Below, one piece after another: positions 16,184 through 49,804 of a stretch of 64,000 bases of DNA. The notes under the pieces are model-generated. The model was given only the letters and a program-made list of their open reading frames with translations, had not been told where the DNA came from and made no database searches. How positions within the stretch are numbered: position 1 is the first letter of the stretch; each line of letters starts with the position of its first letter. The stretch comes from Candidatus Thermosaccharophagus tengchongensis (GTDB lineage Bacteria; Armatimonadota; Fervidibacteria; Fervidibacterales; Thermosaccharophagaceae), in NCBI GenBank assembly GCA_032161105.1, contig JAVHTD010000002.1. One strand, given 5' to 3'. The position numbers and the translations under genes are program-made.

Positions 16184-16657
16184 ATGCCAAGGAGAGGACC
16201 AGTTCCGCCGAGGGAAATCCCGCCAGACCCGGTTTACGGAAGTGTGCTCATACACAAGCTCATTAACCAAATCATGCGGAAGGGCAAGAAGAGCATCGCA
16301 GAGAAAATCATGTATGGCTCGCTGTTGCTGATACATCAACGAACAAAGCGCAATCCGCTTGATGTGCTTGCTAACGCTATACGCAATGTCATGCCTGTGG
16401 TTGAAGTTCGTCCAAGGCGTGTTGGCGGTGCGACATATCAAGTGCCAATGGAAGTTCGCCCAACGAGGCGAGTCAGTTTGGCACTCCGTTGGCTTGTTCA
16501 GGCGGCGAGACAGCGCAAGGGCAGGACGATGGCTCACAGGCTTGCGGATGAAATCATTGATGCTTCTAACAATCAAGGGGGCGCAGTTAGGATAAAGGAG
16601 GAAGTGCACAGAATAGCGGAGGCAAACAGAGCATTTGCTCACTATCGTTGGTTCTAA
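16184..16657 (+). CDS. rpsG: 30S ribosomal protein S7
   Basis: [23 protein letters not shown]. Confidence 0.98.
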
Positions 16658-16670
16658 CGGTGTGATGCGT

Positions 16671-18842
16671 ATGGTAGAAGTTGATTTTGATGGCAAGTTG
16701 CCGCTTGAAATGACGAGAAATATAGGCATAGTTGCCCACATAGATGCGGGTAAGACGACCACGACCGAGAGGATACTGTTTTACACTGGTCGTGTGCACC
16801 GAATTGGGGAGGTTGACGAAGGGACTGCCACGATGGACTGGATGCAGCAGGAGAAGGAACGAGGAATCACAATAACTTCCGCAGCTACGACTTGTTATTG
16901 GAGGAGAAAAATTGGCGCCGACGAGAAAATCTACCGAATTAACATAATTGACACGCCGGGGCATGTTGACTTCACGGCGGAGGTTGAAAGGTCACTAAGA
17001 GTTCTTGATGGAGCGATTGTGATTTTATGTGGGGTTGGGGGTGTGCAACCGCAAACTGAGACAGTCTGGAGGCAGGCAAACAAGTATAATGTTCCGAGAA
17101 TCGCCTATATAAACAAACTTGACAGAAATGGTGCCGACTTTCACTCAGTTGTGCATCAAATGCGGGAGCGATTGAAATGCAAGGCGATCCTCATTCAAAT
17201 CCCGATTGGGCAAGGGGAGGACTTTGAGGGTGTCATTGATCTCATTGAATATCGGGCAATTTACTGGGATGACGAACTTGGGACAGTTATGCGTTATGAG
17301 CCTATACCCGACAGCATAGAGCCGATTGCCGAGATCTTCAGGAAAGCTTTGGTGGAATGGGTTGTGGAAACCGACGATAAATTGCTCGAAAAATACCTCG
17401 AGGAGGGGACTATTTCCTCGGAGGACTTGCGTGCAGCTATAAGAAAACAAACGCTGCGTGGCGAGATTGTTCCCGTCCTCTGCGGGGCAAGTTTGAAAAA
17501 CAGAGGTGTGCAGCCGCTGCTTGACGCCATTGTTGATTTTCTCCCATCACCGCTTGACATAGGTTTTGTTGAGGGTATGAATCCGGAAAATGGGGAGAAA
17601 GTGAGGAGAAAACTGGCAGAAGATGAACCTCTATGCGCCTTGGCTTTTAAGATCCAAACTGACCCGTATGTTGGTCGGCTAACTTACACAAGGATTTATA
17701 GCGGTGTTCTAAGAAAAGGTGACACAATTAGCAACTTTTCACGGGGATGCAGGGAGCGAGTTGCACGGATATTGCGCATGCATGCCAATTATAGGGAGGA
17801 AATTGAGGAGTGCAGGGCTGGCGATATCGTTGCCCTTGTTGGATTGCGAAATACATACACGGGAGATACGCTTGGGGCACCGGAATGCCCAATTTTGCTT
17901 GAGCGCATTGAGTTTCCAGAGCCAGTCATATTTAGGGCTGTTGAACCGAAAACGAAAGCCGAGGAAGAAAAACTTATGCAGGCACTCTTAAAATTGGTCA
18001 ATGAAGATCCGACATTGAGGCTGAGATTTGACAAAGAAACTGGTCAAACCATATTGGCTGGCATGGGAGAGCTACACCTTGAAATAGCTGAGGACAGGCT
18101 TCGCAGGGAATTTGGTGTCGTTGCTCGCTTTGGTCAACCGCAGGTTGCATATCAGGAAACCGTGTTGAATTCCGCTATTGGCGAGGGCAAGTATATTCGC
18201 CAGACTGGAGGGCGTGGGCAATATGGACATGCAATCTTGCATGTCCAGCCTTTGGAGAGGGGTAAAGGGTTAGAGTTTGAAGTTGACATTAAAGGCGGGA
18301 TAATACCGGAAGTTTTCATACCGGCGATTGAGGCTGGAGTGCGGGAGGCTGCTGATAGAGGGGTGCTTGCTGGATATCCAGTTGTGGATGTTAAGATTAC
18401 TTTAATTGGCGGTTCATATCACGAGGTTGATTCTTCGGAATATGCCTTTAAGCTTGCGGCAATGGAAGCCTTCAAAAATGCGTGTAAAAGGGCCACTTTA
18501 ACCCTTTTGGAACCCATCATGAAGCTTGAAATTGTGACGCCGAAGGAATATGTGGGAGAAGTTCTTGCAGACTTAAATGCGAGGAGGGCATCTATCAGAG
18601 GGATGAGGGAAGGCGCGGGGGAGATTATCATCGTTGATGCCGAAGTTCCATTAGCAGAGGTTTTTGGATATGCAACTCAATTGCGCTCGCTAACTCAAGG
18701 TAGGGCATCTTACACAATGGAGCCAGAGCGCTATGCACCGGTGCCTCCAGAGGTGGTTAAGCAAATTGTTCTAAAGCGCGGCTATAGCACATTTGACATT
18801 CTTCCTCATATTGAGGGAAAAACCATTGGCACGCGGGTTTAA
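16671..18842 (+). CDS. fusA: Elongation factor G (canonical)
   Basis: [34 protein letters not shown]; start approximate. Confidence 0.97.
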
Positions 18843-23728: not shown

Positions 23729-24091
23729 ATGGAAATTGAGCGAGGAAAGAGGAAGAAGCGAATTGGTGTGGTTGTAAGCGATAAAATGGACAAAACGGTC
23801 GTTATAATGGTAGAAAGGCTCGTGAGGCATCCTTTGTATAAAAAAGTTTTGCGCAGGCGGAAAAAATATTATGCTCACGATGAAAACAATGAGTGCCGCA
23901 TCGGGGATGTCGTGGAAATTATGGAAACAAGACCTTTAAGCAAGCTGAAAAGGTGGCGTGTAGTTCGCATAATTGAGAGGGCAAAGGTGGCTGCACCGAT
24001 GCCTGCATATGAAGCTAAAGAGGTTGAGGAAGTGGCAGTAACACCACCGGAGCTTTTGGAAGAGCAAAAACTTGAAACTCAGGAGGGGTGA
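23729..24091 (+). CDS. rpsQ: 30S ribosomal protein S17 with acidic C-terminal extension
   Basis: [38 protein letters not shown] before the ATG at 23729. Confidence 0.96.
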
Positions 24092-24098
24092 GAGTTTT

Positions 24099-26183
24099 AT
24101 GGATCTGATAGAGCCTGAAGCGATTAGGAATGTGGCTTTAATTGGTCAAGGTGGGTCTGGAAAAACTTCTTTGGCGGATGCCATTTTATGGGTTACTAAC
24201 ATGGTTGACAGGCAGGGAAAAGTGGAGAGGGGGACGAGCGTTTTTGATTATGAAGAGGATGAAAAGCAAAGGCAGCACAGTATAAATCTCGCCATTGGAC
24301 ATTGCAATTGGCGTGGGCATTTGATTAACATAATTGACACTCCAGGTGGAATTGATTTTGTCGGAGATGCATATGCAGCCTTGCGCGCTGTAGATGGGGT
24401 AGTTCTCGTCTTGGATGCCGGAGAGGGGCTTGAATTTCAAGCGGAGAAATTGTGGGCGAAGGCGGGTGAATATGGACTTACAAGGTTAATCTTTATGACA
24501 AAGCTGGACAGCGATAAAGCCGATTTTGAGAATCTTTTGTCCCAAGCCGGCGAAAAGCTTGCAACCAAGATTGTCCCTCTAACTTTGCCGCTCGGTGAGC
24601 GATCCGAGCACAGGGGTGTTATTGATGTTATATCTCAAAAAGCGTTTACATTTACGGAGAGGGGCGAACCGTTAGAATGCGAAATTCCGGGAGATATGTC
24701 GGAAAAGCTGGCGAAGTATTGGGAGGAAGTTGTTGAAGTTGCTGCGGAAAGTAATGACGAGTTACTTGAGAAATATGTTGAAGGGCATGAATTGACGAAG
24801 GCGGAAATTATGCAAGGTTTCACAAGAGCTGTGATGTCTGGGGCAGCATCACCAGTTTTATGCGGCTCGGGTGCCAAATGCACTGGGATTCCGTTCCTTC
24901 TCGATTCCATCATCAACTTTATCCCTTCCCCTGTTCAGCGTCCATCAATTGAGGCTAAGACGCCCGGGGATGGGAAGGTGGTTAACATAATTCCCGACCC
25001 AAATAAGCCTCTTGCAGCTTTGGTTTTCAAAACGGTGACTGACCCTTATGTTGGGCGCATCAATTACTTTCGCGTATTTTCCGGGACAATATCGTCAGAT
25101 TCTGTCGTGTTTAATGCTAACGAAGGAAGGCGTGAGCGTGTGGGGCAACTCTTTGTTCCTCAGGGTAAAAGCATTGAGTCAATAGGGGTGGCTTGCACAG
25201 GGCAAATAGCAGCAGTTACTAAGTTGGAAGTTACACGAACAGGTCACACGCTTTGTGACGAATCTCATGCGGTGTTGCTACCACCGATAGAGTTCCCAAC
25301 TCCTGTAATGGAACTGGCAGTTCATCCCAAAACAAGGGGTGATGAAGACAAGCTCCTCAGCGGTTTGCAAAGGTTGCAAGAGGAAGACGGGGCATTTAAG
25401 TGGTTCAGGAATAACGAAACTGGCGAGACGATAATTGCCGGTTTGGGAGACTTACATCTTGAAGTTGCAGTTGAGCGCTTAAGGCGGAAGTTTGGCGCTA
25501 ATGTTGAGGTCGTTTTGCCAAAGATACCGTATAAAGAGACCATCCGGAAGAAGGGGAGAGGTGAAGGAAGATATATCCGTCAGACTGGTGGCAGAGGGCA
25601 ATACGGCGTAGTGTGGCTTGAGGTTGAGCCACTTGAGCGCGGAGAAGGGTTTGAGTTCGTTGATGCCATAGTTGGCGGTGTGATACCGAGTAAGTTCATC
25701 CCATCGGTTGAAAAGGGCGTCGTTGAGGCTATGCAGCATGGAGTTCTCGCCGGTTATCCAGTTGTGGATGTGAAAGTTACATTGTTTGATGGCAAGCATC
25801 ATGAAGTTGATTCGTCCGACATAGCTTTCAAAAATGCCGGAGCTATCGCATTTCGCAATGTGATATCACAATGTGATCCTTACCTGCTTGAACCAATCAT
25901 GGAAGTTGAGATAATAGTGCCAGAGGAGAATATGGGCGATATAATTGGAGATTTAAACGGGAAAAGGGGGAGAATACTTGGGATAGAATCCATAGACGGA
26001 ATGCAGAAAATACACGCTTTGGTTCCACTCGCCGAAATGCAGAGGTATGCAACCACTCTGAGATCGCTGACCAGAGGGCGCGGGCAATATTCAATGAAGT
26101 TCTCACACTATGAAGAAGTTCCTCCACACATTGCTGAGAGGATAATTGAAGAGGCGAGGAGAAAAGCAAGTGAGCAGAAGTAG
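24099..26183 (+). CDS. Second elongation factor G paralog (EF-G2/EF-G-like), divergent G domain
   Basis: Full five-domain EF-G ([30 protein letters not shown]), but the G motifs read [19 protein letters not shown] and TKLD. Confidence 0.93.
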
Positions 26184-41093: not shown

Positions 41094-42323
41094 GTGGGTG
41101 ATGGGATAACTTTTTTGAGCGATGGCTCCGTGACTACGCCAATTGGATTTGTCGCAGCTGGAGTTCACTGTGGCATCAAGAAGGACGGAAAGAAGGACTT
41201 GGCTTTGATTTATAGCGAGCATCCATGCATTGCCGCCGGGACATTCACAACCAATAAGATGAAGGCGGCGCCAGTTATCGTTACTCAGGAAAATTTGCGC
41301 CCAGCGCGTGCAACTATAAAAGCCATAGTGGCATGCAGCGGCATTGCAAACAGTTGCACGGGTAAAGCCGGCATACTGGATGCGAGACAAATGTGCGACT
41401 TAGTTGCCAAGGCTCTTCAGATACTCCCAGAGCAAGTTGTGGTAGCATCCACTGGCAAGATTGGGTTGCGTCTTCCAATGGATCGTGTTGCAAAGGGCAT
41501 AGAGGAAGCCGCAAGGAAGCTTTCGCATGATGGCGGCATTGATGCGGCTCATGGAATTATGACAACCGACACTGTCCCAAAGTATGGTGCTGTCAAGTTC
41601 AAAATCAACCAAACTGAAGTTCACATTGGCGGCATAGCGAAAGGCGCTGGCATGATTGCACCAAAGATGGCGACCATGCTTTGCTTCGTGACAACCGATG
41701 CCAATATAACCAAGAATTGCCTGAAGAAGGCACTATCAAAGGCTGTTGAGTTGACTTTCAACTCAATCACAGTTGACGGTGACACGAGCACGAACGATAT
41801 GGTAATTGCACTGGCAAACGGTGCTGCAGGCAATGGGCGAATAAACAGCGTCTCAAGCGACGCATACCACATCTTTGAGGAGGCGCTCATTGTGCTTCTC
41901 AGGCACCTTGCTCATGCCATTGTCCGTGATGGTGAGGGCTCGACGAAGTTTGTTGAGATAAAAGTGGAAGGCGCCGTAACGGAGCAGGAGGCAAAGGCTG
42001 TCGGGTTCGCCGTTGCAAATTCAAATCTTGTAAAGTGCGCGCTGTTTGGTGGTGACCCCAATGTTGGAAGAATTGCAGCTGCCGTCGGGAGGGCGCCGGC
42101 GAGGATAAATCCGGAAAAGCTGTGCGTGTGGATTAATGACACATGTGTGATGCGTGATGGAACGGTGATTGAGTTTGATAGGGACAGCCTCCGCACAAGC
42201 CTTTCAAAAGGCTCGGATGTGTTCATACGAATAGAATTGGGTATAGGCAATGCGAGTTGGACCTTATGGACATGTGACTTGACCTACGAGTATGTTCGGA
42301 TCAATGCTGAATACGAAGTGTGA
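41094..42323 (+). CDS. argJ: Ornithine acetyltransferase / N-acetylglutamate synthase
   Basis: IMTTDT, KGAGMIAPKMATML autocleavage site, DGDTSTND, DGEG, CDLTYEYV.IN. Confidence 0.96.
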   Translation: MGDGITFLSDGSVTTPIGFVAAGVHCGIKKDGKKDLALIYSEHPCIAAGTFTTNKMKAAPVIVTQENLRPARATIKAIVACSGIANSCTGKAGILDARQMCDLVAKALQILPEQVVVASTGKIGLRLPMDRVAKGIEEAARKLSHDGGIDAAHGIMTTDTVPKYGAVKFKINQTEVHIGGIAKGAGMIAPKMATMLCFVTTDANITKNCLKKALSKAVELTFNSITVDGDTSTNDMVIALANGAAGNGRINSVSSDAYHIFEEALIVLLRHLAHAIVRDGEGSTKFVEIKVEGAVTEQEAKAVGFAVANSNLVKCALFGGDPNVGRIAAAVGRAPARINPEKLCVWINDTCVMRDGTVIEFDRDSLRTSLSKGSDVFIRIELGIGNASWTLWTCDLTYEYVRINAEYEV

Positions 42324-42472
42324 ACGCTCAATCACACACCGATGCCATTGGCAACTTGAGTTAGTTCATGAAGGCACAAAGGTTAGTCACATCGTAGCTT
42401 CTTCCAATATTAGCCCTTATGCCCTCAATGGCGCATCAAAAGGGTCATCGTTTCTTTAACTCACCTGTTGGC

Positions 42473-43213
42473 TCATCTCAACCCGTTGCCATCCCAGCCA
42501 GAGCCAGTTCGCCACTTGCCATTCACCCAGTTGTCTATAACCGCTTCTGCTGAATACCATTTCACATGCCCATCTAAGAAGAGCACATTTGAACCACCCA
42601 TATGGCGAGCATTTTCAGGCTTCTGCCTATCAGGGTTGCACTTAGCAGCGCAAGTATTCGCATAAGCGACACGCCATGGGCTATTTAGCAGACCAGAGCA
42701 GTCAGCAAATATTGGTGTAACTGAATGTTGGGTCCATACAACCAATCGCTCCTGGTCGCTGGTGCCATTTATGATGCTCTCCATATACCCATATGACATC
42801 ACGAAATCGCTTGGAAGCACACCAGCGTTTATCAAATCATTCACTCCATGGTGCGGTATACTCCCATTTGCACACCCGAATGGAGCTGCACTTGGACAAG
42901 CCCATATCTGCCAGCTCTTGATGTATGGGAAGAGTGACACCTGCGGTTGAATGTTTGTTTTCGGATCCTTTCGCCAACACCATGTATTAGCTCTTGGCAA
43001 CCTTTCATCGTAGTCCTGAGCATACTGCAGCACTGCTAAGCCTATTTGCTTCAAGTTGCTTTGGCATACTGCAGTCCTCGCCTTCTCCCTTGCCCTCGCA
43101 AACACTGGAAACAGAATCGCTGCCAAGATGGCGATTATCGCTATCACCACCAGCAGCTCTATCAGCGTGAAGCCTCTCCAACTCAACTTAAGCATTCTAC
43201 CTGCTCGCTTCAT
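42473..43213 (-). CDS. DUF1559 family prepilin-type N-terminal cleavage/methylation protein with H-X9-DG motif
   Basis: [34 protein letters not shown]...C.SNLKQ; C-terminal [16 protein letters not shown]. Confidence 0.92.
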
Positions 43214-43427
43214 TTCACATCCCTCCCTTGAGTTTATTTTGAGCACGCCACATTCAAAGCCTCACAACGCCATCATAACCATCATGTGGCAGCTTAAAGC
43301 TGCCACTAATGCGAACTCTAACTGCATCACCCTCCTTTGGTATGGGATTGACTTCACTCCCACAACCCGGCTTTAGCACAGCACAATTTGTTTGTAAAGC
43401 CTCACATCGCAATCTCGTCAAATGCCT

Positions 43428-43778
43428 GTTCGTAGTAAGCCACGAAGCGTTAGCGAAGTGGCGTTCGTATGACATTATTGACGGCACTTCACTTTGTTCC
43501 GTGCCTCACTACGAACCTTCGCCACAAAGTGAAAGCGGAGTGGCGTTCATATGACATCGTTCGTAGTAAGCCACGAAGCGATAGCGGAGTGGCGTTCATA
43601 TGGCATCATTGACGGCACTCCACTTCGTTTCGTGCCTTACTACGAACCTTCGCCACGAAGCGAAAGCGGAGTGGCGTTCATATGACATCGTTCGTAGTAA
43701 GCCACGGAGCGATAGCGAAGTGGCGTTCATATAACATCGTTGACGGCACTTCACTTCGTTTCGTGCCTCACTACGAAC
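43428..43778. repeat. Tandem array (131-bp period, about 2.7 units) of palindromic REPIN-like elements
   Basis: Units start at 43428, 43559 and 43690. Each has an 89-bp element bounded by the inverted ends GTTCGTAGTAAG ... CT(C/T)ACTACGAAC, with internal GCCAC/GTGGC and GGCAC/GTGCC stems. Confidence 0.88.
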
Positions 43779-43803
43779 CTTTGGACTCATTATCCGTTTG
43801 CAT

Positions 43804-43860
43804 GGGCGGACGATAGTCCGCCCGAAATCGTTCCTTCGGGCGGCTTGCAGCCGCCACTAC
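43804..43860. repeat. Second REP-like doublet (GTAG family)
   Basis: Hairpin GGGCGGAC-GATA-GTCCGCCC plus an inverted partner reading GTAGTGGCGGCTGCAAGCCGCCC on the minus strand. Confidence 0.6.
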
Positions 43861-44106
43861 TAAACACGGACACTGGTGAGCTTGAGTTGACTGGGATTAG
43901 CGTTTCAGTTCCAACGCCCGTGTGCGTAAGATTTGCAAAGCCGTTGGAGGAATGAGCACGCATAAGCCGTAGCAGCGTGAGTGAGGATAGCACCATGGAA
44001 CAGCTGCAATCTGCATCCCGTCATAATTATGAGTCCGAAATGCAACGGGCATCAGCAACGCGATGGTCTATCGGGTGCGCATAACGAATGAGTGAGGTGA
44101 ATCACG

Positions 44107-47100
44107 ATGGCGCACAAGTTTGCCTTAAGGCGTGCGTTAGCAGTTGGTTCATCACTTGGTGTGGTATTTGCGGCGCTCCTCATTTACATGCTGGCTCGCA
44201 GCGCAACCTCTGGGACATTGCAGCAAAGTGAGTATTTGCCCTCGCCACTTGAAACCCATCTTATCGGACAGCGTGAGTGGCTTGCTGGCTCAACAGCATC
44301 ATTGCGCATCATCGTCCGAAACCATGAGAAGGACGAACCAATCGCTAACGCGCAGGTTAAAGCCTCACTCAAACACGAGGGTGGACAAACGATACAGCTC
44401 TTCACGGAGCGCACAAATAGGCATGGGACGGTTGAGAGGGCATTCGCAGTGCCATCATGGGCAGTCGGCAGGAATGAACTTGAAGTCAATGTGAAGACAC
44501 CAATAGGGGAAGACAAAATCGTTGAAGCGGTCACTGTGCGTGATGAGGTGCGAATCCTGTTAACCACCGACAAGCCGCTGTATCAGCCGTCGCAAATCAT
44601 ACACATGCGTGCGCTGTGCCTGAATGCAGCGACTTTGAAGCCGGCATCCAACATGCAAATCTCGTTTGAGGTTGAGGACCCGAAGGGCAACAAAGTCTTC
44701 AGGAAGCGCGAGAGGACATCGCAATTTGGCATTGCCAGCGCAGACTTCCAACTCGCTGACGAAATCAACCTCGGAAACTATACCGTTAGAGCAGTTGCGC
44801 AAACCGCCGATGACAAAGGCGAGCTAAGGAAGGTTGGCGAAGCAACGCAGACCGTCAAAGTTGACCGATATGTTTTGCCCAAGTTCAAGGTTGAGCTTGA
44901 GACATCAAAGCGCTTCTACCTTCCGGGTGAGGAAGTTAGCGGGACGGTTAAGGCGAACTACTTCTTTGGCAAGCCGGTCTCCGACGGCGAGGTCATCATC
45001 AAGCTTTCAACATTTGATGTCGGTTGGAATCAGATTGCCGAGCTTCGTGGGCACACCGATGGCGATGGAGTTTATAGGTTCAGCTATCGCTTGCCCGTGC
45101 ACTTTGTCGGGCTGCCGCTTGAGCAGGGTAAAGCGCTGCTCAGAATTGATGTGCGGGTTACGGACAGGGCTGAGCATGAGGAGCAAATAACCGAAACGCT
45201 GCCTATAGCGAAAGAGGCAATAAGCATCGTCGTGATACCCGATAGCCAAGCATTTGCAAAGGGCATCCCCAACACGCTTTTCATGGTCACGACATATCCC
45301 GATGGGACGCCGGCTAAGGCGAGCATAAAAGCAGTTGGGGATGGAATCAACTGGCAAGGTGAGACGGATGAAGCCGGCATTGCTGAGCTGCAATTTGTGC
45401 CAGCCAAAGAGCCCATCAGCATTACCGTTGAAGCAATTGATAGGCAGGGCAACAGGGGCAAATTGGTGAGGACGATTGAGAGCCAAGTCAGCGATGAAGC
45501 CATTTTGCTCCGCACAAGTAAGGCAGTGGCGAAAGTCGGCGATGCAATACAGCTGACGGTTCTTTCGCCGAGGCGTGGTGGCACTGTCTACATTGATGCA
45601 ATCAGGGGAAGGCAAACTGTGCTCACCAAGGCGCTTGAGATGAACGGCACGAAGGGCGTCATGCAGCTGGCACTCACCGAGCAGATGATGGGCACATTGA
45701 CGCTTCACGCATACCGAATAACGAGGACGGGTCAAATTGTCCGTGATACAAAGGTCGTCTATGTCAATCCGGCTGAGGACCTGCGCGTATCCATCAAGCC
45801 GGACAGGGATGTGTATCTTCCGGGCAAGGAGGCGCGAATTGACTTTTCCGTTTCTGACACCTCAGGGAGACCATTGCTTGCAGCGCTCGGAATAACCGCA
45901 GTTGATGAGTCAGTCTATGCCCTTCAGGAAATGCAGCCGGGGCTTGAGAAGGTTTACTTCACGCTTGAGCGGGAGCTGCTTAAGCCGAGGTATGAAATTC
46001 ACGGCTTTGAACCGATAGTGATACTTCGTGAGCCAACAAGACCGATCCCGCTTGAGCGCAAGCAGCCGGCTGAGATTGATGAGAGGAAGCAAAGAGCTGC
46101 GAGGGTGCTGTTTGCTGCGGCAATGCCGGACTTGCACACAATGCATGTGAACACATGGCAGGTGAGGGCACAACAGCTCCGTGAGAAGTGGATTGAGCAT
46201 GCCGAGAAGGCTTACACGCGAGTGATGAATGCCCTTGAGCAATATCGCCGGCGCTATGGTGATTACCCGGAGCCAAAGGAAGTTATAGACGCCCTCATCC
46301 GTGAGAGGCTGCTCAGCCGCCAAGATGTGCTTGATCCTTTGGGGAGGGAGTATCGCGTTGAGCTTTTGAGGGGTCGCTTCCTTTCGCTCATCGGGGCAGG
46401 ACCGGACGGTGAGTTCGGGACAAGTGATGATGTGAGAATGCCACAGGAGCTTCGGTTGAAATTTCGGCGTGATGTAATTGCTTTGGAGGGAGGACCGATT
46501 CAAGCGCTTGCGGTTCCCCCGGGAGTTCCGGGAGTTAGAGGAGTTGTAGCCGAAGCCGAAAAAGCCGCAGCATTTGGCGCAGCCGGCGCTGGCGCGCCTG
46601 AGGCGCAGCAAATTCGCATAAGGCAGTTCTTCCCGGAGACGCTTTTGTTCATCCCGCAACTGATCACCGACGAGCGCGGCAGGGCATCGCTCAACCTGAC
46701 GATGGCTGACTCAATCACAACATGGCGGTTGACTGCGATGGCATCCTCTCTCAATGGCTTGCTCGGGAGCGCTGTAGCATCGTTGCGAGTCTTTCAGGAC
46801 TTCTTCGTTGACATTGACCTTCCGGTCAGCTTGACACAGGGGGACGAGGTCTCAATACCAGTTGCGATTTACAACTACTTGCCGGCTGCTCAAACTGTGC
46901 GCCTGCAACTTCAACCCGAAGATTGGTTTGAGCCGCTGAGCAGCATTGAGCAAACTGTGAGGATGAACGCCGGCGAAGTTGGCGTGGTTAGATTCCCGAT
47001 ACGGGTTAAGGCGCTCGGGACGCACAGCATGACAGTGGTCGCTCGTGGCGAGAAGATGAGCGACGCAATAAAGCGCCAAGTGATGGTTGTCCCAAACGGC

Positions 47101-48732
47101 AAGGAAGTCTGGCAGTCAATTAGCGACACGCTCAAAGGCAGCACAAGGAAGGTCGTGAAGATACCGCCGCAGGCGATTGATGACGCCTCAACGATACTTG
47201 TGCGCGTTTACGGTGGCGGGTTCAGCCAAGTCGTTGATGGCTTGGATAAACTGCTCCGCATGCCGTTCGGATGCTTTGAGCAAACCTCTTCCGTCACATA
47301 TCCGAATGTGCTCGTCCTTGATTACATGAAGCGCACAAGGCAAATCAACCCAGAGATACAGATGAAGGCTGAGCAGTATATCAACTTGGGCTATCAGCGC
47401 CTGCTCACATTTGAGGTCAAGGGTGGCGGCTTCTCATGGTTTGGCAATCCGCCGGCACATGAGGTGCTAACCGCATACGGGCTAATGGAGTTCAATGACA
47501 TGAGCAAGGTCTTTGAGATTGACGGGCGTGTGATAGAAAGAACTGCCAAGTGGCTCATCTCAAGGCAGCGTCAAGATGGCTCTTGGGAACCACCGAAGGA
47601 AGGGATTCGTGAGGGCGTCATAAACCGGCAGACGGATGTGATGCGAACGACGGCATACATTGCTTGGGCACTCACAGAGGCGTTGGCGAGCGTCTCTGAT
47701 GCGGAAGTGAAGCGCTCAATCGGAAGGGCGATTGATTACATGATGGGACAGCGGGTTGAAGGCGTTGAAGATGCCTATGCGCTCGCTGTGATTGCGAATG
47801 CGTTTGTCGGTTGGGATAGGGACAACCCTGTTACGGGACGATTGATTGAGAGGCTCGCCAACATGGCTATCGTTGATGGTGATTCAGCCTATTGGCGCAC
47901 GAGTGCGCCCACATTCACACACAGCAAAGGGATGACGGCTGACCTTGAGGCGACGGCGCTTGCCGCATATGCATTGTTGAGGGCTCGCTCGCATCCGGAT
48001 CTTGTGAGCAAGGCTTTGACATACCTCGTCAGGAACAAGGACGCTTTCGGCACTTGGCACAACACACAGGCAACCGTTTGGGCGCTTAAGGCGTTGCTGC
48101 TTGCGACTGAGGGCGCAACGAGCGAGATTGATGCTCAAATCACCATACGATGCAACGGGATGGAAGCAGCGAAGCTGCGTATCACGCCAGAAGATAGCGA
48201 TATCGTTCGCCAGGTTGACTTGAAGAAGTTCGTAAGGGAGGGCGATAATGAAATCGCTATTGACTGGCAGGGCAAAGGGAGCGCAATCTATCAAATCGCA
48301 TCACGGTTCTACTTGCCTTGGGATCTGATTCGGGGCGAGGAGAAGGAGCCGCTTGATGTAAGCGTTGATTACGACAGGCGTGAGCTGTCAGTCAACGACA
48401 TCGTCAAATGCACGGTGAGGGTGAAGAACAACCAACCGATGACGGCGAAGATGGTCATCGTTGATGTTGGCATACCGCCCGGCTTCCAAGTCATCTCCGA
48501 GGACTTGGCAAAGCTCGTGGAACAGAAGGTCATACAAAAGTTCAACCTGACTGGGAGGCAGGTTATCGTCTACCTTGAGGAGGTGCGCTCGCAAAGCACC
48601 GTGATAATTTCGTATCGCCTGAGGGCGACTTGCCCGATCAGGGCGAGCTCTGGCGCTGCTGCTGCCTACGAATACTATGCACCTGAGGAGACACGCGTTG
48701 AGGCAAAGCCAGTGAGGTTGGTTGTGAAGTGA
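44107..48732 (+). CDS. Alpha-2-macroglobulin / thioester-containing protein with inserted GspG-like domain
   Basis: TDKPLYQP (MG2), YVLPKFKV, AVDESV, RQFFPET, DSITTW, FFVDIDLPVSLT.GD, thioester PFGCFEQ, TQATVWAL, MVIVDVGIPPGF receptor-binding domain. Confidence 0.93.
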   Translation: MAHKFALRRALAVGSSLGVVFAALLIYMLARSATSGTLQQSEYLPSPLETHLIGQREWLAGSTASLRIIVRNHEKDEPIANAQVKASLKHEGGQTIQLFTERTNRHGTVERAFAVPSWAVGRNELEVNVKTPIGEDKIVEAVTVRDEVRILLTTDKPLYQPSQIIHMRALCLNAATLKPASNMQISFEVEDPKGNKVFRKRERTSQFGIASADFQLADEINLGNYTVRAVAQTADDKGELRKVGEATQTVKVDRYVLPKFKVELETSKRFYLPGEEVSGTVKANYFFGKPVSDGEVIIKLSTFDVGWNQIAELRGHTDGDGVYRFSYRLPVHFVGLPLEQGKALLRIDVRVTDRAEHEEQITETLPIAKEAISIVVIPDSQAFAKGIPNTLFMVTTYPDGTPAKASIKAVGDGINWQGETDEAGIAELQFVPAKEPISITVEAIDRQGNRGKLVRTIESQVSDEAILLRTSKAVAKVGDAIQLTVLSPRRGGTVYIDAIRGRQTVLTKALEMNGTKGVMQLALTEQMMGTLTLHAYRITRTGQIVRDTKVVYVNPAEDLRVSIKPDRDVYLPGKEARIDFSVSDTSGRPLLAALGITAVDESVYALQEMQPGLEKVYFTLERELLKPRYEIHGFEPIVILREPTRPIPLERKQPAEIDERKQRAARVLFAAAMPDLHTMHVNTWQVRAQQLREKWIEHAEKAYTRVMNALEQYRRRYGDYPEPKEVIDALIRERLLSRQDVLDPLGREYRVELLRGRFLSLIGAGPDGEFGTSDDVRMPQELRLKFRRDVIALEGGPIQALAVPPGVPGVRGVVAEAEKAAAFGAAGAGAPEAQQIRIRQFFPETLLFIPQLITDERGRASLNLTMADSITTWRLTAMASSLNGLLGSAVASLRVFQDFFVDIDLPVSLTQGDEVSIPVAIYNYLPAAQTVRLQLQPEDWFEPLSSIEQTVRMNAGEVGVVRFPIRVKALGTHSMTVVARGEKMSDAIKRQVMVVPNGKEVWQSISDTLKGSTRKVVKIPPQAIDDASTILVRVYGGGFSQVVDGLDKLLRMPFGCFEQTSSVTYPNVLVLDYMKRTRQINPEIQMKAEQYINLGYQRLLTFEVKGGGFSWFGNPPAHEVLTAYGLMEFNDMSKVFEIDGRVIERTAKWLISRQRQDGSWEPPKEGIREGVINRQTDVMRTTAYIAWALTEALASVSDAEVKRSIGRAIDYMMGQRVEGVEDAYALAVIANAFVGWDRDNPVTGRLIERLANMAIVDGDSAYWRTSAPTFTHSKGMTADLEATALAAYALLRARSHPDLVSKALTYLVRNKDAFGTWHNTQATVWALKALLLATEGATSEIDAQITIRCNGMEAAKLRITPEDSDIVRQVDLKKFVREGDNEIAIDWQGKGSAIYQIASRFYLPWDLIRGEEKEPLDVSVDYDRRELSVNDIVKCTVRVKNNQPMTAKMVIVDVGIPPGFQVISEDLAKLVEQKVIQKFNLTGRQVIVYLEEVRSQSTVIISYRLRATCPIRASSGAAAAYEYYAPEETRVEAKPVRLVVK

Positions 48733-48736
48733 TGCT

Positions 48737-49552
48737 TTAAAGCTCCACATCCCTCGGTGCGAGTGAGAGAACGCCCCTTAGGATGCCTATGAGCGTCGTG
48801 TTCGGTGGCAGGGCCACCTCCAAACTGATATATTGCGGCTTTGATAGCTTTGAGAGCTCCGCAAAGAATTGGTGCCAGTTGATGCAGCCCCTCCCCGGGG
48901 GCAAATGCAGATCTTCAAAACCATCGTTATCGTTCCAATGAATGATGATCAAATGCGGTGCGAGGGTGTGCAGCGATTGTATCAATCCCTCAGCGCTTAT
49001 GTTCGCATGACCGGTATCAAGGCACACCTTTAATCGCTCGCTCGACACGCTCGCAACCAGCTCAATTAGCTCTGAGGAGCTGTCACCGATGGCAATCGGA
49101 GTGAGGTTTTCAACGGCGATGATGACATTGTATTTTTCCGCCCACTCAATGAGCCTTGCGAGGCTATCAATTGATGCCCTCAGGGCTTCCTCACGCATAC
49201 CAGCATCGTGCAATCTTCCCCCGGGGTGCACAACAACGACGCTCGCACCGATGGCTCTCGCCACTTCAATTGCGCGCCTGTGTGCAGTGATGGCTCGTTG
49301 CCTGTGCGAATGGTCTAAGCTGCTCAAATCGTATTGTCCGCCGTATGGCGCATGCAATGCACAAGCTTGAACGCCATTCTTATGCAACGCAGCGCTGAGA
49401 GCACTCACTTCAGCTTCGTCAAAGAAGTTGAAGTGGTGCTCGCCATCAGCCCAAACTTCAATTGAGCTTGCTCCTTCCTTCGCGAGCTTGTGAATGTAGC
49501 GTGACAGGCGCACGCCATGAAACATTGATGAACAAACTATCAAGCGCATCAT
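48737..49552 (-). CDS. Sugar phosphate isomerase/epimerase (TIM barrel)
   Basis: LHAPY, VVVHPG, AVEN, CLDTGHA, H.NDNDG..DLHLPPG.G.INW. Confidence 0.85.
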   Translation of the reverse strand: MMRLIVCSSMFHGVRLSRYIHKLAKEGASSIEVWADGEHHFNFFDEAEVSALSAALHKNGVQACALHAPYGGQYDLSSLDHSHRQRAITAHRRAIEVARAIGASVVVVHPGGRLHDAGMREEALRASIDSLARLIEWAEKYNVIIAVENLTPIAIGDSSSELIELVASVSSERLKVCLDTGHANISAEGLIQSLHTLAPHLIIIHWNDNDGFEDLHLPPGRGCINWHQFFAELSKLSKPQYISLEVALPPNTTLIGILRGVLSLAPRDVEL

Positions 49553-49804
49553 CGCTCCCTTCTCGGCTTTCCCATTTGCACCCGTGAGGGCATCACCGTT
49601 CCATTATGCCAAAGTTGGGGACAACGATGAATCTGAAGCGAATGTCAACTCCGACCTATTCACCGTAAGCATCGCAAACTGTGCCGCCTTGCAGGACCGA
49701 AGGGCATTTCTCACTCAACCTTTTCCCTTCCATTCCCCATTGGTGCCACGCTGCACACTATTATGCGGGGTCAATACAATAAGTGCAAAGTGGGGTGTGC
49801 GCAG

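Follow-up and report, generated by a model that had tools for sequence, protein, structure and literature searches.

A pseudopilin-type head in the bait slot of a bacterial thioester alpha-2-macroglobulin-family protein

The gene and its protein

The window analyzed here is a 64,000-nucleotide stretch of contig JAVHTD010000002.1 (assembly GCA_032161105.1) from Candidatus Thermosaccharophagus tengchongensis, a member of the Armatimonadota. It contains a gene for a large exported protein of the alpha-2-macroglobulin (A2M) family in which a domain related to the head of GspG, the major pseudopilin of type II secretion systems (T2SS), stands directly ahead of a putative protease bait, an arrangement in which the head may act as a stopper within the trap's own mechanism. 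The open frame comprises 1541 codons with no internal stop in its translation, and the coordinates of its features are collected in Table 1. A Pfam scan of the whole protein matched MG2, MG3, A2M_BRD (residues 468-606), A2M (845-935), TED_complement (1034-1330, E = 1.2e-50) and A2M_recep (1446-1530), each with a score exceeding its Pfam cut-off. The protein belongs to the alpha-2-macroglobulin/thioester-containing superfamily, with an array of macroglobulin (MG) domains followed by a CUB domain, a thioester domain (TED) and a C-terminus of the receptor-binding type.

The closest sequences in the PDB, as found with phmmer, are metazoan, led by human A2M (1.2e-71) and followed by CD109, A2ML1, TEP1 and C3/C4/C5; of the 50 PDB sequences that reached E <= 1e-10, none is a bacterial A2M (ECAM, Salmonella A2M). 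Residues 41-1030 (990 residues) were modeled with AlphaFold2 from a 19-sequence alignment, with a predicted local distance difference test score (pLDDT) of 78 and a predicted template modeling score (pTM) of 0.65, and a Foldseek search with this model returned CD109, C3, A2ML1 and A2M at E values of 1e-44 to 1e-34, with E. coli ECAM (5a42) at rank 47. Twenty related loci were fetched for comparison, and conservation was measured over a set of 26 full-length sequences. The motif GCFEQ is present in all 20 relatives and invariant across the 26 sequences, and a thioester bond is predicted from this Cys-x-Glu-Gln motif in the TED. Protease-induced collapse and covalent capture are putative activities of the protein, by homology with A2M, A2ML1 and C3.

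The N-terminal 40 residues contain no cysteine and hence no lipobox, and the relatives have Sec-type N-termini. Since no cysteine lies beside the only hydrophobic segment of the protein, it should be exported or signal-anchored rather than a lipoprotein. No Rfam family was matched within 42300-49800 at E <= 0.1, and a scan for promoters and terminators yielded no more than expected from shuffled sequence.

Table 1 Features of the A2M-family gene and of the protein it encodes
Feature	Residues	Position in window	Strand	Basis
Gene for a 1541-aa exported thioester alpha-2-macroglobulin-family protein		44107..48732	+	Open frame, Pfam matches, PDB sequence relatives
N-terminal hydrophobic segment (signal peptide or signal anchor)	11-29	44137..44193	+	Sole segment above hydropathy threshold
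End of MG6a and LNK, with a strongly conserved AVDESVYALQEMQPG stretch; variable linker at 641-660	598-653	45898..46065	+	Conservation, pLDDT
Conserved pre-helix QRAARVLFAAA, outside the pilin fold	654-672	46066..46122	+	Conservation, models
GspG-type pseudopilin head: long alpha1C-like helix, alpha-beta loop, three strands	683-778	46153..46440	+	Pfam, PDB profile, models
Pfam T2SSG match within the head	693-774	46183-46428	+	Profile positions 8-100 of 108
Predicted calcium-site loop A764-GPD767-G-E769-FG-T772-S-D774-D775		46396..46431	+	Spacing as in PulG/OutG, alignment
Putative bait, disordered, hypervariable, G/A/P-rich	781-833	46447..46605	+	Conservation, length, pLDDT
alpha'NT-type plug IRIRQFFPET	834-845	46606..46641	+	Alignment to human A2M ETVRKYFPET
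Thioester motif G-C-F-E-Q in the TED	1055-1059	47269..47283	+	Sequence

The inserted domain is a homologue of the GspG head

About 240 residues separate the A2M_BRD and A2M matches. The first-pass annotation of this DNA had proposed that a GspG-like domain with a calcium loop lies in this interval, in the position of the anaphylatoxin domain of complement, and that a Gly/Ala/Pro-rich bait-like stretch follows it. The strings that it quoted were located in the translation (AVDESV at residues 598-603, the pseudopilin motif run within 707-776 and RQFFPET at 839-845), and its interval, 46170-46620, corresponds to residues ~689-838. When the whole protein was scanned, the Pfam family T2SSG (PF08334) scored 17.3 bits (E = 0.005), under its 21-bit cut-off; excised pieces of 195 and 82 residues scored 22.7 bits (E = 1.1e-4) and 23.7 bits (E = 5.1e-5), respectively, both above it, and in the genome scan the head-bearing gene scored 22.1 bits. 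A profile of residues 655-790 made from nine sequences (the window protein and eight relatives) was compared with PDB sequences, and GspG/PulG chains led the ranking (29jd, 1.6e-6; 1t92, 2.8e-4; 3g20, 4.5e-4; 5wda, 6.2e-4; 2kep, 4.1e-3), with the unrelated chains 8fje (1.2e-3) and 3mko (0.01) interspersed.

In an AlphaFold2 model of residues 655-790 (pLDDT 77, pTM 0.67), a helix of 37 residues is accompanied by two short ones and by three strands, and the head retains a pLDDT of 74-87 inside the 41-1030 model. A Foldseek search of the PDB with the head model returned nothing at E <= 0.001, and its ten best rows were major pseudopilins throughout (E 0.012-0.14, probability 0.72-1.0, template modeling score 0.38-0.65). 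With VIA-align, which is independent of Foldseek and was run over 48,161 chains, EpsG (4lw9_A) ranked first (Z 9.4, root-mean-square deviation 3.0, 100 aligned residues), PulG (5wda) next (Z 7.6) and type IV pilins thereafter (Z 5-6). The fold assignment leans on the Foldseek ranking, VIA-align and the sequence profiles. The T2SSG profile, the order of the PDB matches and the VIA-align fold match together confirm the proposed GspG-like insert, which is a homologue of the GspG major pseudopilin head. A chance match to a motif was also considered and is excluded by the agreement of profile, fold and conservation across the 26 sequences.

The head is an internal domain that lacks the class III signal, the N-methylation motif and the hydrophobic alpha1N of a pseudopilin, and the helix preceding it is polar (NTWQVRAQQLREKWIEHAEK). 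Residues 655-790 contain no cysteine, and no ANATO family appeared in the Pfam lists for the whole protein or for the excised pieces. Within the head, conservation in the 26 sequences is limited to the calcium ligands, the DP.G turn (D743) and the core residues A709, L730 and L736, and no further conserved surface motif was found on it in this set.

A predicted calcium site and the possibility of calcium gating

In OutG and PulG, calcium is bound by D117, S/T122 and D125 (perhaps D124) and by the carbonyls of 114 and 119, according to a 2026 preprint (PMC13081927). In spacing, D767, T772, D774 and D775 of the window protein match D117, S/T122, D124 and D125 of those proteins; G765, D767, D774 and D775 do not vary in the 26 sequences, and at least 90% of these keep T772. 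The head is thus predicted, from the alignment, to carry a complete calcium site of GspG type in the loop before its last strand.

Such a site raises the question of whether calcium gates the bait, in that low calcium in the envelope would unfold the head, which would then become protease-sensitive and lengthen or expose the bait, so that the sensitivity of the trap would track calcium or envelope stress. The conservation of all four side-chain ligands at the PulG/OutG spacing is in keeping with this idea, as is the behavior of PulG, which the same preprint reports to be disordered and degraded in vivo when calcium is lacking. OutG, however, is described there as stable without calcium, so that the site is no predictor of lability, and human A2M with a bait that is lengthened but unbroken does not collapse, as reported by Harwood et al. 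(PMC9352918). We consider calcium gating rather unlikely, and it would be compatible with a role of the head as a stopper. A calcium-dependent trigger and exposure of the head by a cut in the bait, both raised in the first-pass annotation, may apply.

Position of the head, the putative bait and the plug

Alignment of the window protein to its metazoan relatives resumes at query residues 833-837, with residue 833 at human A2M 726, 836 at C3 alpha-chain 89 and 837 at C3b alpha' 14. By these offsets to the A2M and C3 chains, which uphold the placement given in the first-pass annotation, the head and bait occupy the slot between MG6a/LNK and alpha'NT/MG6b that holds the bait-region domain (BRD) in A2M and C3a in C3. 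Upstream of the head, conservation falls from 0.83 at residues 601-620 to 0.28 at 641-660, and residues 608-653 have a pLDDT below 50 in context. The pre-helix that follows is conserved (A665 invariant; Q662, L668 and A670 at 90% or more of the 26 sequences) and helical in both models, with a pLDDT that rises from ~48-50 alone to 55-78 in context.

Downstream of the head, residues 779-835 are 47% Gly, Ala and Pro, and the corresponding stretches of the relatives are rich in the same residues and often in Met. The majority-fraction conservation of the region at 781-833 is 0.23-0.31, compared to a typical 0.5-0.8, and is the lowest of the protein outside the N-terminus; its length ranges from 56 to 166 residues among the 20 relatives, and its pLDDT in context is 25-33. 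Composition, hypervariability and low model confidence bear out the bait-like stretch of the earlier proposal: residues 781-833 look like a protease bait, and cleavage there is predicted. The longest bait, of 166 residues, in a related gene at L025:7482-12479 (-), contains two dockerin-like D-x-D-G-D...L repeats.

In the plug, R839 and F842 align to R732 and F735 of human A2M, and Y255-V256-L257 aligns to F224-V225-L226 of its MG2-MG3 linker. R839, F842, P843 and T845 of the plug, as well as Y255, L257, P258 and F260, are invariant in the 26 sequences. Mutating the matching plug and channel residues drives human A2M into its collapsed form, according to PMC9352918. Because the plug and channel residues are invariant and match those of A2M, the trigger machinery of the superfamily is taken to be present.

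The order of these elements also bears on the idea that the module is a releasable signal, with cuts in the linkers at 641-660 and 781-833 freeing a pilin-like fragment of 13-15 kDa, much as C3a is freed. Two poorly conserved, low-confidence linkers do flank the module, it lies in the C3a slot, and some family members have an anti-sigma-type N-terminus. There is, though, no receptor candidate, no conserved neighbor and no evident processing motif, and conservation of the pre-helix points to a module attached to the rest of the protein; release as a signal is, in our view, very improbable.

Distribution, variants and origin of the head

The head profile was searched against 1.84 billion representative proteins and matched 3041 of them at E <= 1e-3 and 316 at E <= 1e-10. 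From the best 150 matches 28 proteins, mostly long ones, were chosen, and 25 of these are A2M-family proteins with either one head (~1500-1700 residues) or three heads and CarboxypepD_reg (~1900-2100 residues). The other three are a Kelch protein with four heads, a 632-residue T2SSG protein and an SdrD-repeat protein, the last probably a calcium-motif artefact. The Kelch protein (P0110, 1977 residues, T2SSG 138.9 bits) indicates that the soluble pseudopilin head has also been reused outside A2Ms. The single-head form was found in Armatimonadota and the triple-head form in Pyrinomonadaceae, Terriglobales and Candidatus Limnocylindrales (names as given by the source), giving at least three phyla; the triple-head form accounts for 338 clusters, and PF08334 is already in the precomputed annotation of many of them.

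Within the phylum, a sample of 201 genomes was screened. The head profile was matched at E <= 1e-5 in 73 genomes, and in 66 the head lay within a frame of at least 800 residues; 23 rows in frames of 241 residues or fewer were taken for free pseudopilins or fragments and left out of this count. A strong TED_complement match (E <= 1e-36) was present in 63 genomes, 62 of which have a head-bearing long frame, whereas the second A2M class of the phylum, with a weaker TED match, has no heads. The source genome has a single head-bearing gene and a single canonical GspG; DUF1559 is matched 35 times in it, and part of a second A2M lies at the edge of a contig. A further head-bearing A2M-type frame, at L035:440-6418 (+), exceeds 1993 residues and is open at the contig end; MG2 is matched for a second time within its ~1100 extra N-terminal residues, which also show a bMG3-like match.

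Only two strong-TED genes lack the head, one in G056, the sole genome with a strong TED gene and no head, and the other a second gene in G094, and both encode full-length A2Ms. No head was detected in the slot of either gene (L033:1880-6820 (-) and L034:2160-7082 (+)) even with all HMMER filters off, and the slot is about as long as in head-bearing proteins. It holds the conserved pre-helix, then four to six hydrophobic stretches resembling membrane helices, and directly after these a G/A/P/M-rich bait. In the L034 gene the last hydrophobic segment closes with a motif resembling the prepilin helix of DUF1559. When the L034 slot was used to look for relatives in a word-based search, only the query itself was recovered.

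These variants are relevant to another account of the head, a passive spacer, that is, a neutral and sturdy filler which lengthens the bait domain and pushes the bait outward with no specific contact or role in the native state. The low-confidence linkers on either side and the lack of a conserved surface motif would suit a spacer, as would the tolerance of human A2M for any bait sequence, reported in PMC9352918. A filler is harder to reconcile with a head retained in 62 of 63 genomes of the subtype and across at least three phyla, with an invariant calcium site, and with a conserved pre-helix that gains confidence in context; the exceptions, moreover, show replacement by membrane segments, not plain loss, which suggests that a bulky element is needed. 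A purely passive spacer is, in our estimate, no likelier than calcium gating.

The head is distant from the GspG of its own genome (BLASTP E = 0.02), and when 94 heads were placed in a quick tree, a branch with an SH-aLRT support of 98 divided 10 heads of free GspG from all 84 A2M heads. The tree and the distance of the resident GspG fit a single old capture of the head. Recent capture of the resident GspG was considered as an alternative origin and is rejected on the BLASTP value and the split in the tree.

An anti-sigma signature, H-x3-C-x2-C, was observed at the N-terminus of four of 197 long family members (P0014, P0070, P0150 and P0166), and Pfam zf-HC2 scored 45.8 bits on P0014 and 22.7 bits on the L034 protein. 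These N-termini hint that some traps are perhaps coupled to sigma-factor signaling.

Genomic neighborhood and the question of a link to pili

The neighbors of the A2M gene are argC, argJ, a DUF1559 gene and a gene of the sugar-phosphate isomerase type. The DUF1559 gene (42473-43246, -) encodes a prepilin-type protein with an N_methyl match and is transcribed away from the A2M gene, with 860 bp between the two; pilT- and pilC-like genes lie at 13-2240, ~42 kb from the A2M gene. The first-pass annotation had pointed to both as possible companions of the trap while allowing for coincidence, and the genes are indeed there, but the pairing with DUF1559 is not conserved in relatives. With 35 DUF1559 matches in the 2.74-Mb genome, a DUF1559 neighbor by chance is not rare.

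Among the 20 related loci, a prepilin gene (N_methyl) adjoins the A2M gene in one (L014) and T2SSE/T2SSF in another (L026). The other 18 loci have unrelated and mutually different neighbors apart from within-family synteny, with no conserved partner gene, and in the same-genus locus (L028) two other genes stand between the A2M gene and the nearest prepilin gene. The GspE-F-G-K operon of the genome is on a different contig. A canonical T2SSG gene (E <= 1e-10) was found in 119 of the 201 genomes, and among the 66 head-bearing genomes it was found in 54 and missed in 12. Four of these 12 are assemblies of one, one, three and eight contigs; in a draft genome, a missing match does not prove that the gene is lacking. 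In one family of the phylum (G051:C3, G089:C7 and G173:C88), a canonical GspG and an A2M-like gene of the second class share a contig at a distance of ~10 kb.

These observations were weighed against the suggestion, also made in the first-pass annotation, that the head docks on or decoys pilus or T2SS machinery, binding parts of a pseudopilus or type IV pilus and thereby placing the trap at the machine or mimicking a pilin. Homology of the head to GspG, a genome with a T2SS-type operon including GspG, and the adjoining filament genes in the window, L014 and L026 would all be expected if this were so. Against it stand the missing class III signal and hydrophobic alpha1N, the unrelated neighbors in 18 of 20 loci and the two intervening genes in L028, the frequency of DUF1559 in the genome, the 12 of 66 head-bearing genomes with no canonical T2SSG match, the separate contig of the genome's own GspG operon, and conservation that is limited to fold and calcium residues. 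Docking or decoying is not borne out by the signals, the neighbors or the distribution of GspG, and we hold it to be improbable; the head is probably part of the trap's own function and not of pili.

Elsewhere in the window, two EF-G-type genes were noted at 16635-18842 (+) and 24072-26183 (+), the second inside a ribosomal-protein cluster downstream of the S3 gene.

A proposed role for the head as a stopper in cis

The reading that we favor, at a probability of roughly 55%, is that the gene encodes an exported, monomer-type thioester trap whose bait domain was remodeled around a captured pseudopilin head, which would serve in cis as a calcium-stabilized stopper or scaffold. The chain runs from MG6a and LNK through the pre-helix, the GspG-type head and a disordered bait of ~50 residues to the alpha'NT plug and MG6b. 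If the protein works as its homologues A2M, A2ML1 and C3 do, cleavage of the bait by a foreign protease would let the alpha'NT plug leave the channel formed by MG2, MG3 and LNK, whereupon the protein would collapse and the exposed thioester would bind the protease covalently. The head, directly N-terminal of the bait and presumably too bulky to pass through the channel, would anchor the upstream end of the bait, present the bait to proteases and confine productive cuts to the stretch between head and plug. Its role would be analogous to that of the folded ANA domain in the same slot of C3, and it would be neither a pilus subunit nor a docking device.

A stopper acting in cis is suggested because the head is nearly universal in the subtype, because only fold-determining residues are conserved in it, and because no partner gene or T2SS seems to be needed. 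The pre-helix adds to this, being conserved and rising in model confidence in context. The two exceptions, in which membrane-type segments stand in for the head, suggest that the slot keeps a bulky element that cannot be threaded.

Several points weigh against this proposal. According to Harwood et al. (PMC9352918), human A2M is functional when its bait is made up entirely of Gly and Ser, and its trigger propagates C-terminally, so that a folded domain upstream of the bait is dispensable for the basic mechanism. The placement of the head relative to the MG ring is inferred, and the LNK between MG6a and the module is low in model confidence, so that the module may be free to move. In three of 21 loci, the window included, the A2M gene has a type IV filament gene beside it. 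The tree that bears on capture is unrooted, has 87 columns, draws its GspG from one phylum, and its pattern recovered 10 of 21 GspG loci.

Calcium gating and the passive spacer are close relatives of the stopper proposal, and docking and fragment release are less likely. A broader version of the stopper proposal would treat the bait slot as a socket for modules, most often a pilin head acting as an ANA-like stopper that arms the trigger, rarely a membrane bundle, and with some anti-sigma N-termini, so that the family would include transmembrane protease sensors in which release or unfolding of the head takes part in signaling. This extension is speculative, and we would put it slightly behind calcium gating and the spacer and ahead of docking.

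Novelty and significance

A literature search, with subscription-only papers outside its scope, turned up no publication that links macroglobulin to pseudopilin, T2SSG, GspG, PulG or pilin-like; papers in which macroglobulin stood beside one of these words dealt, by their titles, with other subjects, and the available part of a 2026 review of A2M evolution (PMC12939704) does not mention pilins. The first-pass annotation had ranked the arrangement as a candidate for an undescribed system. This holds insofar as no description was found in the literature, but the architecture itself is common, with PF08334 beside A2M domains in public precomputed Pfam annotation. The combination of an A2M with a pilin head is common among uncultured bacteria and apparently undescribed. 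For annotation, it accounts for stray T2SSG matches inside large proteins labeled 'MG2 domain-containing'.

The A2M family shares one trigger, in which a cut in the bait lets the plug leave its channel, and the contribution of the region upstream of the cut is still argued. Here a small, independently folding domain with a predicted calcium site has been placed upstream of the bait and kept nearly throughout a widespread bacterial lineage. The bacterial proteins thereby lend themselves to the question of whether a stopper ahead of the bait stabilizes the armed state, the same question as that of the role of ANA in C3 before activation. It also presents the pseudopilin head as a soluble building block reused outside filaments.

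Comparison with known systems

The bacterial A2Ms of the ECAM/YfhM and MagD/YfaS types are likewise located in the envelope, and ECAM is among the structural matches given above. ECAM/YfhM-type proteins have a lipoprotein signal and a pbpC partner gene, and the MagD/YfaS type has mag-type partner genes. The window protein differs from both in having no lipobox and, among the neighbors scanned, no pbpC-type, mag-type, transglycosylase or transpeptidase gene; the Pfam models bMG5 and bMG10 gave only scores below their cut-offs.

With GspG, PulG, EpsG and OutG (PF08334; 4lw9, 3gn9, 3g20, 1t92, 5wda) the insert shares the head fold, the motifs AL..Y..G.YP, DP(W/L)G and GPDG..T.DD, and the spacing of the calcium ligands. 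In contrast to those proteins, it is an internal domain of a 1541-residue protein, without a prepilin signal, N-methylation motif or alpha1N, lies outside any T2SS operon and is separate in the tree.

Like the insert, the ANA domain of C3/C4/C5 is a folded unit of ~80-95 residues that fills this slot, ahead of both alpha'NT and the site of activating cleavage. ANA is a disulfide-rich helical bundle, whereas the insert is free of cysteine and has the alpha/beta fold of a pilin. The likeness is one of analogy and not of homology. There is also, unlike in C3, no evident furin-type break upstream, so the head would stay on the N-terminal fragment after bait cleavage. The logic of a plug held in a channel is common across the superfamily, as stated in PMC9352918.

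The nearest systems are the monomer-type A2Ms of metazoans together with human A2M (A2ML1 7q1y, CD109 8s3o, TEP1 2pn5, A2M 7von/6tav), which are the best PDB sequence matches (1.2e-71 to 6.6e-48) and share the order MG1-MG7, CUB, TED and receptor-binding domain. The thioester Cys-x-Glu-Gln, a bait in MG6, the alpha'NT plug and the MG2-MG3 linker residues are likewise held in common. Bait-region domains are given as ~66-126 residues, with those of bacteria smaller than those of eukaryotes, in the 2026 review (PMC12939704). The window protein differs from its metazoan counterparts in its bacterial host, in its signal or anchor N-terminus, and in a bait-region domain of ~230 residues that includes a folded head with a predicted calcium site.

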